Shown: positions 34,335-42,101 of the stretch, piece after piece
Numbering within the stretch: the stretch's first letter is position 1
Layout of the letters: every line of letters starts with the position of its first letter
Source of the DNA: Dehalococcoidia bacterium
GTDB lineage: Bacteria > Chloroflexota > Dehalococcoidia > UBA2979
NCBI GenBank assembly: GCA_965219085.1
Contig: OZ244720.1
Location: 3,136,001 to 3,200,000, forward strand
Reading direction: 5' to 3'
DNA: 64,000 nucleotides
Translations under genes and position numbers: made by a program
Notes under the pieces: generated by a model
Told to the model about the DNA's origin: nothing
Databases searched by the model: none
What the model saw: only the letters and a program-made list of their open reading frames with translations

Positions 34335-34475
34335 TGGAACCGCCTTACTGCCCGAGAGCCCTTGCTGTTCGGCCCGCGCGCCGGGGTACCGGGCGATGGT
34401 ACGACTACTGCCGTGAGGGTCCGCCGCGCCGGGACAGCGCGGTGGGATAGGAACTAAGCGCGGGCAGGACCAGCC

Positions 34476-35913: not shown

Positions 35914-36054
35914 CGCGCACCCCCCTCGCTGGTTGCTGTCCCTATTGTCGCGTCGGGCGATCCCGTGTCAAGAACCAGCTTGACGCCACGAGCTCATCGA
36001 GGACATCGGCGAGTGTGAAGGAGTCACCCCCGCAGCGTAGCCCCGATTCGGCGG

Positions 36055-36327
36055 TTACTTGCGTCGGCGCTCGGTCCAGGTCGCGTGCCGCGGCTGACCG
36101 GCTTCGCGGACACGATCGCGAAGCCGCCCGAAGTAGTCCGCATCGGCGGTGACTGCCTGCGGCGACGCCGCGCCTTCGAGGAACGGGCCGCGTAGGCGCT
36201 GGCGATCCCGGTCCTTGCGGATTAACTCACCGACGTACTCGCTTGACGAGCTGTAGCCGCGGGCGCTGACCTGCTGGTCCACGAAGGCCTTAAGGGCCGC
36301 GGGGAGCGATATGTTCATCGTGCTCAT
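36055..36327 (-). CDS. ParD-like RHH antitoxin (partner toxin lost)
   Basis: MNISLPAALKAFVDQQV..RGYSSSSEY. Confidence 0.75.
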   Translation of the reverse strand: MSTMNISLPAALKAFVDQQVSARGYSSSSEYVGELIRKDRDRQRLRGPFLEGAASPQAVTADADYFGRLRDRVREAGQPRHATWTERRRK

Positions 36328-36479
36328 GATGCAACGCTCGCAGGTTTGGCAAGCGTTGCCAATACGCCCCTCGGGCCTTGCACTGCGGATTCCCGGCGGA
36401 GGTCGCCAGCGCTACCCGACGGTGGGGCCAGGCGATCCGGTTGAACCGGCCGTCCTGCTGGAGATGCAGCGCCTGCTGC

Positions 36480-36962
36480 TCGCCCGGCACGCCGCTCGAG
36501 GAGCACGGCGGGCGCCTGCGAGACCAACAGAACTAGATCGGAGGCTCCGGGTACAACCCGTGCGCGGCGGCGTTCGTGCCGCCACCCCCGGAGGTCGTGG
36601 AGGACCTGTTCGACGACCTCTGCGCCTTCGCCAGCACCGATGCGTGGCCACCGCTGGTCCAGGCAGCGATCGCGCAGGCGCAGTCCGAAACCATCCACCC
36701 GTTCGTGGACGGCAACGGGCGCGTGGGCCGTGCCCTGATCCATTTGGTGCTGCGGCGCCGCGGGCTGGGGCTCCGGGTCCCACCACCCATCTCGCTGGTG
36801 CTGGCGACGTGGCCGTCGGCCTACGTACGTCGGGCCGCCCGACAGCGCCGGAGCGCGCGACGGCTTCGAGCACTGGGTGGAGCTCGCCGCCGCGGCGTGC
36901 CTGCGTGCGGCGGGCGATGCCGCACGTTTCGAGGAGCGGGTGCAGGCGCTCCAGGCGGAGTG
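36480..36962 (+). pseudogene. Fic-domain protein fragment
   Basis: ETIHPFVDGNGRVGR; truncated by the IS1111-type element; start approximate. Confidence 0.8.
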
Positions 36963-37053
36963 GCTCGACCGTATGGAGTGACCGGCTCCGAGTTCGCAAA
37001 CTCGCGGGTTACAGACGCGAGGCATGCAGAGCCGCATGCGAAAGGAGCCGGTC

Positions 37054-38166
37054 ATGGAGATGACTACCACATACGCAGGGATGGATGCACACGTGCGGGC
37101 GATCCACGTGGCGGTGCTGGCGCCGGGGGCCGAGCGGCCCGAGGAGTGGCAGTTGACGAACGAGTCGCGCTCGGTGAAGCGGCTCGCGCAACGCCTGAAG
37201 CGCATGGCGCCGGGGCCGGTCGTGGCCTGCTACGAGGCCGGTCCGGGCGGCTTCGCGCTGCAGCGCCAGCTCGAGGCCGAAGGCATCGAATGCCAGGTGA
37301 TCGCGCCAGCGCTGATCCCCAGGCGGCCCGGCGACCGCGTCAAGACCGACCGTCGCGACGCACGGAAGCTCGCCGAGCTGCTGCGCGCGGACCTGCTCAC
37401 GGCGGTGCATCCCCCCACCGTCGACCAGGAGGCGGTGCGCGACCTCTGCCGGGCGCGCGAGGACGCCGTGACCGACCGCACCCGCGCGCGCCACCGCCTG
37501 GCGAAGCTGCTGCTGCGGCGCGGCATCGCCTACGACGGGCGGAACTGGACGAAGCGGCACCGCAACTGGCTGCTGACGCTGCGCTTCGAGCACCCGGCCG
37601 CGCAGGCCACCTTCGACGACTACCTGCGCGCGCTCGAGGGCGTGGAGGAGCGGCTGCGCGCGCTGGAGCAGGAACTGGCCGCGTGTGCCGCCGGCGACGA
37701 CTACCGCGAGGCGGTGGGGCTGCTGCGCTGCTTCCGCGGCATCGACACGGTAACGGCGCTGACGGTGCTGGCCGAGCTCGGCGACATCACCCGCTTCGGC
37801 AGCGGGCGGCAGTTGATGTCGTACCTCGGGCTCACGCCCAGCGAGTACAGCAGCGGCGCCCGTCAGCGGCGGGGACCGATCACCAAGACCGGCAACGCCC
37901 ACGTGCGCCGGCTGCTCGTAGAGAGCGCCTGGCACTACCGCCACCCACCACGGGTGGGGGTGGCGCTCCGCAAGCGGCGCGAGGGCCAGCCGGGCTGGGC
38001 GGTGGCGCTGGCCGACCGGGCGCAAGCCCGGCTCCACCGTCGCCACCGGCGGCTGATCGCTCGCGGCAAGCCGTCGGTGGTGGCGAACGTCGCCGTGGCG
38101 CGCGAGCTCGCCGGCTGCCTGTGGGCGGTGCTGCACAACAGCGCGGAGCAGCGCGCGGCGGCCTGA
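37054..38166 (+). CDS. IS110-family DEDD recombinase A
   Basis: GMDAH, CYEAG, KTDRRDA, SEYSSG, ITKTGN. Confidence 0.95.
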   Translation: MEMTTTYAGMDAHVRAIHVAVLAPGAERPEEWQLTNESRSVKRLAQRLKRMAPGPVVACYEAGPGGFALQRQLEAEGIECQVIAPALIPRRPGDRVKTDRRDARKLAELLRADLLTAVHPPTVDQEAVRDLCRAREDAVTDRTRARHRLAKLLLRRGIAYDGRNWTKRHRNWLLTLRFEHPAAQATFDDYLRALEGVEERLRALEQELAACAAGDDYREAVGLLRCFRGIDTVTALTVLAELGDITRFGSGRQLMSYLGLTPSEYSSGARQRRGPITKTGNAHVRRLLVESAWHYRHPPRVGVALRKRREGQPGWAVALADRAQARLHRRHRRLIARGKPSVVANVAVARELAGCLWAVLHNSAEQRAAA

Positions 38167-38377
38167 TGCAACGCGCCGCGGCGAAGGCGGAGACGGTGAT
38201 ACGCCGCTCCGGGGCTGGAGCGGATGGATGAGCGAGGACACGCTCAGGAGGATGCGCGGAAGCACTGTGCGGCAACGGCGCCTGGCGCCGCCAACCCGCG
38301 ACATCAGACGGCGAACCCTCCCGGCGAAGCACGGTCATGCGGCAAGGCCCCAGGCAACCCGACGTTCCTATAGAGAG

Positions 38378-39637
38378 TCAAGGGAGCGATCCGGCAGCCT
38401 CCCGCGCGGCGTGAGCGGCGAGGCGATTCGGGACAGAGGGATGCCCCGCTTCCAACCCCGCCCGCGCTGATCCGGGATCCGTGGATGCCCGTGTTGGCTG
38501 CCGTGGGTGCTCGCCGTCCACAGACGCGGGGGGCCCGCCCTCACAGGCGCGGGGGGCGCCGGGAGTCGAGCCGGGCGACAGCTGCGTGGCGTATCGCGCC
38601 AGATCGGCAGTGAGCGTTCGATAGAGCTGGCGAGCGACATAGCGCTTCAGGCAGCGGATGATCTCGCGTTTGGACTTACCCTCCGCAGTGCGCTTCGCCA
38701 CGTAAGCCCTGGTGCGGGCGCAATAGCGCAGGCGGACGAGCACGATCCGGTACAGCGCGCTGTTGGCCTGCCGGTCGCCGCCCGGGTTCAGGCGATGTCG
38801 CTGCGTGCGCCCGGAGGACGCCTCGAGGGGCGCGGCGCCGCAGAGCCGTGCGAAGGCGGCCTCGCTCGACAGCCGTCCGATGTTCTCGCCGGGGGTGACG
38901 AGTAACTGCGCGGCGTTCACGATGCCGACACCGGGCAGTGCGAGGGAGCCGGGTGCGACCCTCTCCACAAGTGACCGCAGCGCCTGGTCGAGATCGGCGA
39001 CCTCGCGGTCCAGCTCGGCGACGTGGTGAGCGACGCTGCGCAGCGCGAGCTTCGCGGCCTGTAGTGGTTGGTCGAGCCGGGCCCTGTCCGGACGGAATCG
39101 CGCGCACTGCCGCGCCTTCGCGGGCAGGGTCTGCTGCGGCAGCGCCTCGCGGAGTTCCGCCGGCGCCGTGGCGATCAGGTCGCGCAGCTGCAGCAGCGCC
39201 GCACTGCGGGCCTTGACCGCGGCTGAACGAGCATTTGCGAGGGTGCGGATCGACTCGACGACACCGTTCGTGGCCTTGGGCAGCACCTGCGCCGTACCCG
39301 CCAGCACCTGCCTCGCGGCGGCCTCGGCGTCGATCGGGTCTGACTTACCCTGGCGCCGGCGCGTGTGCCGGTGCGGCTGGCTGACCTCGCGCACATCCAG
39401 CCCCTGTGCGAGCAACCAGCGTGTGAGCCCGGCCCCGTAGGACGAGGCGCCCTCCACGGCGATCGTCGCGATCGTGCCGAACGCCTCCAGCCACTGGTGC
39501 AACTCCCGGTAGCCCCGCGCGGTCGCTGGGAACTCGGCATCCCCGAGTCTCTCTCCTCGATCGTCGAGTGCGACTGCGTGGTGCGTGCGGGAGTGGGTAT
39601 CCACCCCTCCGATGACACCGCTCCGCGTTTCCGGCAT
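38378..39637 (-). CDS. IS110-family DEDD recombinase B
   Basis: GGVDTH, AVEGASSYG, KSDPIDA, EASSG, GGDRQAN, RCLKRY. Confidence 0.95.
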   Translation of the reverse strand: MPETRSGVIGGVDTHSRTHHAVALDDRGERLGDAEFPATARGYRELHQWLEAFGTIATIAVEGASSYGAGLTRWLLAQGLDVREVSQPHRHTRRRQGKSDPIDAEAAARQVLAGTAQVLPKATNGVVESIRTLANARSAAVKARSAALLQLRDLIATAPAELREALPQQTLPAKARQCARFRPDRARLDQPLQAAKLALRSVAHHVAELDREVADLDQALRSLVERVAPGSLALPGVGIVNAAQLLVTPGENIGRLSSEAAFARLCGAAPLEASSGRTQRHRLNPGGDRQANSALYRIVLVRLRYCARTRAYVAKRTAEGKSKREIIRCLKRYVARQLYRTLTADLARYATQLSPGSTPGAPRACEGGPPASVDGEHPRQPTRASTDPGSARAGLEAGHPSVPNRLAAHAAREAAGSLP

Positions 39638-39666
39638 GCTCGCCGTACCTTCCTGCGGGGAGGTGT

Positions 39667-39851
39667 GTGACCGGGTCGTGGTGGGCGGACAGAACAGCGA
39701 TGAGGCAACTCTGAGCCAGGTTCCTATGAGGTCACGCCACCCGCGGCCCGGTCACTTGGTGGATGCGAGGAGGGCGGAGCCGACACGTCGGATTGAGGAC
39801 ACCGCTCGCGGTGGGTCAGCGAATATCTAGGTCAGGCTCCGTCCTTCTCGC
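39667..39851 (-). ncRNA. Bridge RNA of IS110 element B
   Basis: Two stem-loops with internal loops; target guides at 39820-39827 and 39786-39795, donor guides at 39720-39727 and 39695-39700, each matching the actual junctions. Confidence 0.85.
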
Positions 39852-39984
39852 TGTGAGTATCTTCGCTGCGAATATCAGAGTGACACGTCGTCGAAGCAGC
39901 GCCCTCGTTCGTCCATCTCCCCCCGTTCCGGAGCCGGATCGCCACGACCACCGCCGGTGCTGCTTGACAGCCGGTCACTCCATA

Positions 39985-40858
39985 TCAGCTGTACGTCGCG
40001 AAGAGCGCGAGCTGTGAGCCGGGCGTCGGCTTCACGCGCCGCACGATGAGCCGCACCGCGCTGGCGTCCGCCATGTGCTGGAACGGCGTGTACGTCGTCT
40101 CGGCGACAGCGGCGCCGCCCGGCAGCCAGTACGGGATCGGCGTCCAGTCCGCTTCCGGTATCGCCTCGATCAGCGTGCGTACGTTCGGCTGCTGGCGAAT
40201 CGTGACCGAGAAGCGGACGTCCTGCTTGCGGCAGGCGGCGACGACCCCGTGGTTGTAGAAGCCGCTGTCGGCTCGCATCGTGAGCTGCCCGCTCGCCCCG
40301 GCGTCGCGGACCCGCGCCACCGTCTCACGCAGGAAGTGGGCGGCGCCGCGCCGGGTCCCGCTCCGGCCGCCCATGCGCGGGCGAGCAATGCGCGGCTGAG
40401 GCGGTCGAGCTGGCGGACGTGGCCCCAGCGGAAGCTGCGCAGGAAGGTCCCGAGGGTGGACGGCGCCTTCACGGTGCAGCCGAGCACGCGCCCGGCGCCG
40501 CCGGCGCGCATCGCATCGGCGTCGTCGATGCAGTCGCCGCCGGCGAGCGCCGAGGCGACCAGGGTCAGCAGCTTGTCGCCGGCGTTCGCCCGCCCCGGCG
40601 CGTCACCGAGGTCGAGATAGCGCTCGGCAAGATCGGGGAGACCGAGACGACCGGCGAGCGTGGCGGGGAGCAGCAGGCCCGCGTGGTCCACGAGGCGGTC
40701 GTCGTCGAAGGCGATGTCTATCCGGTCGGGGCTGCTCGCTGCTAGCATCGAATGGTTGCTCCCTGTGGCTCGGACGTGATTCGTACAAAACCATTGTCCC
40801 AGCTACAGCGAAGCACCCAACCTCAGCCGCTCATGAGCTCTTCTTCGGTGGATCAGGG
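39985..40858 (-). mobile_element. IS1380-family 5' remnant with internal deletion
   Basis: FDDDRLVDHAGL, GGDCIDD, APSTLGTFLR, RADSGFY; IR tcggtggatcaggg at 40845-40858. Confidence 0.85.
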
Positions 40859-40963
40859 GTAAGCAGCATTGCCTATGGCCGATCGAGGTCGCAGTCGCCC
40901 AGTCCCTGAGGCGGGGGGCCTTCGCATCGGCCTCCGACGAGGCGACCATCACGTCGCGGCTGT

Positions 40964-41455
40964 CTAGTCTCGGTGCAACCAGCGCAACGGCAGAAGTACG
41001 CCGCCCGCCTGGAACTCGTGGCCCTCCGGCGGTCGACGCTCGCCTGGCGTAACCGCGGTCCGGTCGACGTATACCTCGCCATCGCGGACCTCGACGGCAA
41101 GGCGATCGAGACCGCGCGGCAAGGAAACGCGCGGGTGCGTTTCGTGGCCCGCCAGGTCGTACGTGAACGGCCGGCATGTGTCGAGACACCAGCCCGTGCG
41201 GCCGTGGAGCGAGAAGTCCGGGCGGTACGCCACGACGCACTCAGGGTCGGGATGGGGAACCCTGGCGACCAGCGCTGGGAGCTTGCCGGCGTCAACACGA
41301 ACGACGTGAAACGCCAACGGCTCGACGGCGTCGCCGAAGGGCGTGACCGAACCCGGAGGGAAGTCCTCGATGGAGCCCACGTCGACCCATGGATCCTTGC
41401 CTATCCACACGACGTTCCAGACCGGCGCCCTGGCTGAGGCGGTGAGCAGGCGCAT
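40964..41455 (-). CDS. Degenerate Rieske-like protein
   Basis: VDVGSIEDFPPG...YDLAG...LDRLAVEVRDGEVYVD fold signature; CxH and CxxH ligands incomplete. Confidence 0.5.
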   Translation of the reverse strand: MRLLTASARAPVWNVVWIGKDPWVDVGSIEDFPPGSVTPFGDAVEPLAFHVVRVDAGKLPALVARVPHPDPECVVAYRPDFSLHGRTGWCLDTCRPFTYDLAGHETHPRVSLPRGLDRLAVEVRDGEVYVDRTAVTPGERRPPEGHEFQAGGVLLPLRWLHRD

Positions 41456-41543
41456 ATCGTCTGAGCAGAAATGCTGCCGGTGTCGCTACACTGGATGCCC
41501 AGCAACGACACCGCCCGGTGTCTGTCACACAAGGACGGCAGAG

Positions 41544-42101
41544 ATGGCCGAATGGTGGGAGGGGCTTACTGGCCCCCTCCAGGCGTTCTACATGATCGGG
41601 CTCGTCGCCGCCGCGTTGCTGGCCCTGCAGCTCCTGCTGCTCGCCTTCGGGTTCGGCGGCGATTTCGAGCTGGGTGACGATGCCGGACTCTCCGGGGCTG
41701 TGTCGTTCCGAGGGCTGACCGCGTTCTTCTTCGTGTTCGGCTGGGTCGGCGTGCTCATGGAGGAGACGAACGCGCCGCTCCCCGCCTCCGTGGCCGTTGC
41801 CGGCGTGGCCGGAGCGCTGGCCATGGCGGGTGCGGTCATCATGTGGCGCAAATTCGCCAGCCTCGAGGCGGACGGCTCTCTCGACTACGCCACTGCGGTT
41901 GGAACCGTTGGGAGTGTCTACGTCACTGTTTCCGACGAACGCGCCCGCCCGGGGAAGATCATGGTCATGGTGCAGGGCCGGCTTCGGGAGGTGGCCGCCT
42001 TCGCGGAGCCAGGCAGTGGCGCAGTGGCGCCCGGAGCGCGCGTCGAAGTCGTCGACACCATCGACCCGTCCACCGTGCTGGTTCGCCCGCTCTCGGGTTG
42101 A
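41544..42101 (+). CDS. NfeD-like membrane protein
   Basis: SFRGLTAFFFVFGW, C-terminal OB-like region, upstream of flotillin. Confidence 0.8.
   Translation: MAEWWEGLTGPLQAFYMIGLVAAALLALQLLLLAFGFGGDFELGDDAGLSGAVSFRGLTAFFFVFGWVGVLMEETNAPLPASVAVAGVAGALAMAGAVIMWRKFASLEADGSLDYATAVGTVGSVYVTVSDERARPGKIMVMVQGRLREVAAFAEPGSGAVAPGARVEVVDTIDPSTVLVRPLSG

Follow-up and report, generated by a model that had tools for sequence, protein, structure and literature searches.

The described system to which the locus analysed here comes closest is that of IS621 from Escherichia coli (PMC11208160, PMC11208158). According to these papers, IS621 carries its bridge RNA in the left end of the element and on the strand of the recombinase gene, with the target loop ahead of the donor loop, handshake guides following the right-side guides, and a recombinase of the DEDD and Ser type. 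Durrant et al. (PMC11208160) predict bridge RNAs for 85.7% of IS110 elements and place the guide RNA of the IS1111 group in the long right end; supplementary tables of the same paper list predicted bridge RNAs, and the subfamily studied here may be among them.

Within the 64-kb stretch of DNA that we analysed (the window), positions 38361–39867 of the minus strand are very probably a 1507-bp IS110-group insertion sequence that carries in its left end of 231 nt the gene for a bridge RNA of about 185 nt, in the sense direction of the recombinase gene. All of the IS621 features listed above recur in this element, and the RNA is of similar size. It differs from IS621 in its distant recombinase (phmmer E 4.9e-4 to chain 8wt6_A), in a crossover of the form NC rather than CT, with donor and target unequal at the first core position, in a left donor guide that ends at position 6, in a right target guide reaching 6 nt past the core and in a handshake of 3 nt; it falls outside the set of IS621-like orthologues that share the CT core. 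The best solved relative is the ISCro4 transposase (PDB 9t56; the name comes from the structure search), with the same SG motif in the Tnp domain and low similarity. Elements of the IS1111 group belong to the same recombinase family and have the opposite layout to the long left and short right end seen here; the element that the studied one interrupts is laid out in the IS1111 manner.

We regard this as a genuine and unusually readable bridge RNA of a kind known since 2024, and it leaves knowledge of that kind of system unchanged. What it adds is an example distant from IS621, in a high-G+C lineage and in a setting where neighbouring natural empty and occupied sites allow all guide positions to be assigned without experiment, together with a family alignment that is a natural illustration of the handshake rule, with three-state covariation in 63/63 loci. 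The sole feature that we judged worth following is the unequal first core position.

Borders of the element and its recombinase

The borders were taken from the genome itself, a single 3.3-Mb contig that holds two occupied and two empty sites of the studied element. Empty and occupied sites differ by exactly 38361–39867, with an overlap of 1 base, which gives a left end of AGCGAAGAT... and a right end of ...ATAGGAACGTC on the minus strand. Both empty sites read GATATTC-GC-GGGTTG on that strand (in longer form ...CACTCTGATATTC-GC-GGGTTGCCT...), and the occupied site reads GATATTC-GC-AGCGAAG ... ATAGGAACG-TC-GGGTTG, with a left junction of ...GATATTC-GC-AGCGAAGATAC... and a right junction of ...CTCTATAGGAACG-TC-GGGTTGCC.... 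From this comparison the left half of the target, GATATTC, with its core GC (G at 39869, C at 39868), lies at 39868–39876 on the minus strand, and the donor core TC (38362–38361) followed by the right half of the target, GGGTTG (38360–38355), lies at 38355–38362 on the same strand. At the crossover the target has the dinucleotide GC and the donor has TC, so that C is the base in common, and it is also the one base that is shared between, and ambiguous to, the two junctions; in site numbering, the right side of this copy reads G7, T8, C9 and the left side reads G8, C9. The joint from 38360 to 39868 that skips the 1507 bp, again with one base fitting both sides, is also carried by contigs of two metatranscriptomes (X15 and X17) and of a DNA run (X1). 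The layout is asymmetric: the left end is long (231 nt) and the right end extends only 17 nt past the stop codon.

The two copies in the genome differ at 2 of 1507 positions, while their flanks differ at 4 positions in 965 on the right and at 32 in 206 on the left. We dropped the reading of these copies as independent insertions, since the right flank is near-identical too, and they may descend from one insertion followed by duplication. A copy in another assembly is identical at 1484/1507 positions and occupies the same 15-bp site between flanks that differ at many positions, which speaks for insertion that is specific to the site.

By its profile matches, the ORF at 38378–39637 (minus strand, 419 aa) classifies as an IS110-family recombinase of the DEDD/Ser type, with a DEDD RuvC-like domain (PF01548, 1.3e-21), a Tnp domain (PF02371, 3.2e-15), both beyond the Pfam cut-offs, and 158.2 bits to the NCBIfam model NF033542, ‘IS110 family RNA-guided transposase’, for which the cut-off is 140. 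Among solved structures it is closest to ISCro4 (E 1e-4) and next to the IS621 chain given above. The catalytic residues D13, E62, D100, D103 and S275 are conserved on evidence that varies by residue: S275 stands opposite the IS621 serine on the printed HMMER alignment, where that serine is taken as S241, the number in the deposited chain less an assumed 2-residue offset; E62/D100/D103 align with IS621 E60/D102/D105 in an N-terminal stretch that scores weakly; and D13 is matched to IS621 D11 by motif only, as the alignment begins at residue 33 (IS621 residue numbers from PMC11208158). The ORF continues about 70 aa past the point at which relatives cease to align (around residue 343–355), and this tail (38378–38590, minus strand) is low in complexity, rich in Pro, Ala and Gly, ends 17 nt from the tip of the element and is common to the relatives at 97% identity.

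A scan of contigs for relatives matched 598 stretches, 199 of them encoding a relative, and we kept 80 loci. Three loci at 93–97% identity come from assemblies labelled Dehalococcoidia, and the other 77 are 46–56% identical and mostly from Actinomycetota. The split between the close group (L008, L009 and L017) and the remainder (L010–L087) suggests that the element crossed phyla.

Guide loops, crossover register and first core position

Folding of the minus strand reproduced exactly the two hairpins proposed in the original prediction, at 39851–39765 and 39755–39667, and its reading of the locus as a bridge RNA in which the target loop precedes the donor loop and all four guides are legible is supported. 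Fold, RNA contigs and covariation place the RNA at 39658–39851 on the minus strand, with a predicted start near 39851 and exact ends that are modelled on IS621. In the target-binding hairpin (39765–39851) the outer stem pairs 39851–39835 with 39781–39765 around an apical hairpin at 39818–39797, and in the donor-binding hairpin (39667–39755) it pairs 39755–39735 with 39687–39667 around an apical hairpin at 39717–39704, all on the minus strand and all from the fold together with pairing in the family.

The left target guide GAUAUUC plus GC, or GAUAUUCGC (39819–39827, minus strand), is identical at 9/9 positions to target positions 1–9 in the flank (39876–39868) and in both empty sites, and the word occurs twice in the window, as guide and as flank, against 0.31 expected. 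The right target guide CAAUCC (39790–39795, minus strand) pairs with target positions 10–15, GGGTTG, by five Watson-Crick pairs and one G.U pair. Directly after it, at 39785–39789 of the minus strand, GA (39789–39788) complements the donor TC and the handshake guide CGU (39787–39785) complements donor positions 5–7, ACG. The target match had been put at about 16 bp and its right guide described as unusually long; by our count it spans 9 + 6 = 15 positions, one of them G.U, and the earlier figure had taken in CGU, which complements the donor end. The guide itself extends 6 nt past the core, the additional complementarity being the 3-nt handshake to donor positions 5–7, and right-target guides longer than that of IS621 are noted for some orthologues in Durrant et al. 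(PMC11208160).

On the donor side, the left guide AUAGGAAC at 39727–39720 of the minus strand is the same word as the right end of the element at 38371–38364 (8/8), as had been claimed, and it occurs three times in the window against 0.24 expected; the third occurrence, ATAGGAAC at 34447, has no element features nearby and looks like chance. The earlier match of UCGCUG (39700–39695) to the reverse complement of 39868–39863 was likewise confirmed. It belongs to the right donor guide AUCGCU plus GU (39694–39701, minus strand), which forms five Watson-Crick pairs with the left-end AGCGA (39867–39863), pairs with C9 and makes a wobble with target G8. In this copy the donor-loop guides correspond to the right end of the element joined to its left end. 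The left donor guide is unpaired with donor positions 7 and 9, and of the two handshakes that of the target loop covers 3 nt and that of the donor loop is unpaired at position 7.

In the mechanism that we propose, the RNA of about 185 nt would fold into two hairpins with an internal loop in each. The target loop would specify GATATTC-GC-GGGTTG, the CAAUCC-GA on its 3′ side reading the top strand, and in the donor loop AUAGGAAC and AUCGCU-GU would recognise the end-to-end junction of the excised element, ...ATAGGAACG-TC-AGCGAAG.... Here the CGU after the right target guide would pair with the donor only following top-strand exchange, much as the bases that directly follow the right target guide of IS621 on its 3′ side pair with donor positions 6–7 after that exchange (PMC11208158). 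With protein binding and chemistry as in IS621, both loops would be held by a DEDD/Ser recombinase tetramer, with strand exchange immediately past the shared C.

Alignment of the left ends with MAFFT gave 74 rows, the window and 73 of the 80 loci; four loci without a findable donor-guide motif (L026, L037, L058 and L072) were left out, as were three that were identical in the extracted stretch (L009, L012 and L065). The target loop has a constant frame of ...CUGAC-(variable 8–9 nt)-UGAC...GUC-(variable 5–6 nt)-GA-N-YUGUCGG and the donor loop one of GUGAC-YNAUAGGAGC...AUC-N-CUGU-YUUGUCC, and the variable words repeat the flank of each locus. Positions 1–7 of the left target guide match the locus's own flank at 4.92/7 on average and those of other loci at 2.36/7 (51 unique pairs; 63 loci had a usable flank), and the right target guide matches its own right flank at 3.74/6 and others at 1.59/6 (46 unique pairs of 52), neither value being reached in 10000 permutations, which ignore shared descent and so overstate significance; the distinct guide and flank states are numerous. 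Low-scoring rows are mostly junctions that MAFFT misplaced by a few columns, for example in the Arthrobacter group, and these were left uncorrected. The right donor guide in turn tracks the left end, as ATCTCT with AGAGAT in 17 rows, ATCACT with AGTGAT in 6, and ATCGCT with AGCGAA, ATCGCA with TGCGAG and ATTACT with AGTAAT in 3 rows each. Covariation of the guides across homologues, which had been named as a check on the original prediction, is found: over 73 related loci the loops vary with their own flanks and ends.

The stems hold through this variation. A family structure from MAFFT and alifold, computed on 70 rows (four truncated rows out) and counted on 74, comprises 25 pairs with 93.7% of cells paired and two-sided changes at 16 pairs. 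None of 500 stem shuffles reached the observed value on four of five measures, one of 500 did so for the count of two-sided pairs, and stems slid along the alignment as controls were 32–51% paired.

The register of the crossover is the point on which we depart from the original prediction, which had CG as the core and read the circle junction as ataggaa-CG-cagcga. That reading takes the element as CAGCGA...ATAGGAA plus CG and its target as GATATT-CG-TCGGGTT, so that the empty sites would stay empty for want of a T; it can point to CG at both junctions of the occupied copies and to the RNA word AAUCCGACGU, which is complementary to the entire right junction ACGTCGGGTT. We consider it very improbable. 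The T demanded by a target of ...CG-T-CGGG is missing from 2/2 empty sites and from the empty-form contigs of three runs, all of which join with an overlap of one base. Whatever flank follows, the right end finishes ATAGGAGC-N-TC at 63/63 loci with a findable right end, and the left end of relatives aligns from AG, not from C. The base of the target loop after GA is complementary to N in 63/63 loci and in three states (U-A 49, C-G 8 and A-T 6), so that N belongs to the donor as position 7 and TC is donor positions 8–9; with N as a donor base, the CG of the original prediction is not a core, and the crossover lies one base to the right. The handshake base of the donor loop is complementary to target position 7 in 40/53. 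Our register would join ...ATAGGAACGTC directly to AGCGAAGAT in the circle; a CG core would give one base fewer and no T.

In the GC/TC register the first core position is unequal between donor and target. Donor position 8 is T in 63/63 loci. Of the 53 rows whose junction is clean, 45 have A and 4 have G at position 8 of the left flank, that is of the target; the core of the target is AC in 45 of 63 relatives and GC in the studied copy, against a donor core of TC throughout (63/63 relatives and the copy). The top-strand guide of each loop complements the position-8 base of the partner and not that of its own DNA: the A of the target loop pairs with donor T8 in 63/63 and is mismatched to its own target in 49/53, and the U or C of the donor loop pairs with target position 8 in 48/53 (3 of these by wobble) and is mismatched to its own donor in 63/63. 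At the left junction the base of the target is retained and at the right junction that of the donor, the result expected if the outcome is set by the top strand.

On these alignments, C9 is the only core base common to donor and target, with position 8 behaving like a handshake base. That the shared core is a single nucleotide in the whole subfamily (mostly Actinomycetota, plus this clade), with position 8 as a third handshake position, is a tentative proposal that we hold to be a little short of probable. The pattern fits the lesser conservation of the first core base reported for IS621 (PMC11208158), and it fits the arguments for top-strand or single-strand transfer made in two preprints (10.1101/2025.10.25.684509 and 10.64898/2026.08.31.748434). 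If true, it would make these elements evidence from nature for the top-strand or copy-out models of the 2025–2026 preprints and would imply a built-in bias of insertion over excision; it bears on the number of truly fixed bases in a bridge-recombinase site and on the debate over single-strand and double-strand transfer. We found no description of unequal natural cores in the portions of the literature consulted, including PMC13626964, a thin basis for calling them unreported.

Transcribed strand and RNA libraries

The original prediction had flagged four outer-stem positions that are A.C or C.A on the minus strand and G.U on the plus strand. Read by hand from the fold, these are real and peculiar to the clade: at the aligned columns of the two stems concerned (39835–39851/39765–39781 and 39735–39755/39667–39687), relatives mostly have standard or G.U pairs. 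In this copy the plus strand folds at -123.0 kcal/mol (z -5.0) and the minus strand at -95.3 (z -2.85), and in the window copy and two near-identical relatives, all with the A.C mismatches, the plus strand is better by 20–28 kcal/mol, depending on the stretch folded. The family points the other way. Over the same columns alifold gives -22.7 for the sense strand and -4.6 for the antisense strand; G.U cells, which can pair in sense only, number 205 against 22 A.C cells, which can pair in antisense only; and restricting the count to the 16 pairs predicted for both strands leaves 59 G.U and 13 A.C cells. Folding energy taken sequence by sequence does not separate the strands among 71 family members (35 sense, 35 antisense and 1 tie). 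On the minus strand the bases complementary to the core stand at the 3′ end of each 3′-side guide, like those of IS621 (guide polarity in PMC11208160).

A -35-like box, TTGACT, lies at the right end (38376–38381, minus strand), and at the circle junction it comes to stand 18 nt from GAAGAT (39864–39859). IS110-family circles assemble a promoter across their joined ends. Among the relatives, TTGA[CA] occurs within the last 28 nt of the right end in 60/60, and in the joined ends a -10-like hexamer NAnnnT follows at 16–19 nt in 57/60, of which 55 have it at 17–18 nt. We infer by analogy with IS621 that the boxes of the joined ends would function as a promoter, with a start near 39851, the first base of the first hairpin. 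In the integrated locus (39580–39960) a simple promoter and terminator scan returned nothing, including no sigma-70-like site. Family G.U and A.C counts, guide polarity and the direction of the split promoter all point to the minus strand, and because these three agree we take it as the transcribed strand, as the original prediction had favoured.

Four of 24 sequencing runs were examined, as contigs and not as reads: three metatranscriptomes from three studies (X15, X16 and X17) and the DNA run X1. Each of the three RNA runs has one contig on the hairpins and none longer, at 39658–39843 (X15), 39670–39841 (X16) and 39662–39841 (X17), with 0–1 mismatches; the contig of the DNA run spans 38582–39827. 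The ORF is represented in the RNA runs only by loose-ended pieces of 33–37 nt and by low depth in two X15 bins, gaps that do not count as evidence of silence. The presence of the hairpin stretch alone in the RNA libraries hints at a discrete RNA of about 180 nt, from contigs that carry no strand, true ends or abundance. An Rfam scan of 36000–42000 found no bridge-RNA family; its single hit, cold-seep-1 within the ORF, scored 25.5 bits, below the gathering score of 125.8.

Three other readings of the hairpins bear on the same evidence. A functional RNA from the plus strand, antisense to the leader of the recombinase and acting as an antisense regulator or a mirror-image guide, would account for the better plus-strand fold of this copy and for the four mismatches that turn into G.U, and the strandless contigs agree with it as well as with a minus-strand RNA; it runs against the family pairing counts and consensus fold, would put the core-complement bases at the 5′ end of the guides, the reverse of the known architecture, and has the split promoter directed the opposite way, so that we regard it as highly unlikely. 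Less credible still, to the point of being nearly negligible, is a structured 5′ leader with a role in the translational control of the recombinase and none as a guide: the hairpins are stable and lie directly upstream of the start codon, and a leader would not be expected to vary in its loops with flanks and ends across dozens of loci while its stems stay paired.

That the RNA is a bridge RNA by descent, with this clade's copy decaying and the element no longer mobile, is unlikely too, if less so than either of these. Decay would fit the four stem mismatches, the poor pairing at handshake position 7 of the donor loop, the 419-aa ORF with its read-through tail beyond the part that aligns with relatives, the possible origin of the two genome copies by duplication and the two perfect target sites that stand empty. 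It fits poorly with the near-identity of those copies and with the copy in the other assembly, so similar over its length between visibly different flanks; the catalytic residues are intact, all guides still match, and the RNA stretch is present at 99–100% identity in three RNA libraries. We retain the minus-strand bridge RNA of an IS110-group element as the most probable reading of this locus.

The interrupted host element

The studied element sits in an IS1111-like element of the IS110 family, here called IS-A, on the plus strand at 36964–39997, which the insertion splits into 36964–38360 and 39868–39997. The ORF of IS-A (37024–38166) scores 261 bits with NF033542, and the element has a left end of 60 nt, a right end of 325 nt and a 14-bp sub-terminal inverted repeat of TATGGAGTGACCGG with CCGGTCACTCCATA. 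Copies or partial copies of IS-A are found at four further places in the genome. The target of the studied element is the long 3′ end of IS-A, split about 130 nt from the IS-A tip, and from this position we infer that it would insert into copies of this second IS110-family element.

In the RNA runs X15 and X17, contigs of 183 and 232 nt show an uninterrupted IS-A right end across the insertion point (about 38254–38360 plus 39868–39943), and what the insertion cuts may be IS-A's own 3′ RNA. The IS-A 3′ end folds weakly (z -1.95). Read in the orientation of IS-A, the sequence after the site is GAAUAUCAG; it is similar to the IS-A terminus CATATCAG and might be an IS-A donor guide. One possibility is that the studied element specialises in insertion into the region of another IS110-family element that holds the guide RNA.

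A repeat of about 610 bp, found at C1:3085990–3086600 and at least 17 other places, ends exactly at the start of two IS-A copies, which suggests a chain of elements, each inserted at the end of another. Adjacent ORFs of 129 and 192 aa at 39985–40748 of the window (minus strand), both matching PF13701 (DDE_Tnp_1_4), look like a transposase split by a frameshift, and the stretch at about 39987–40860 recurs at 88–94% identity in at least 8 places of the genome.
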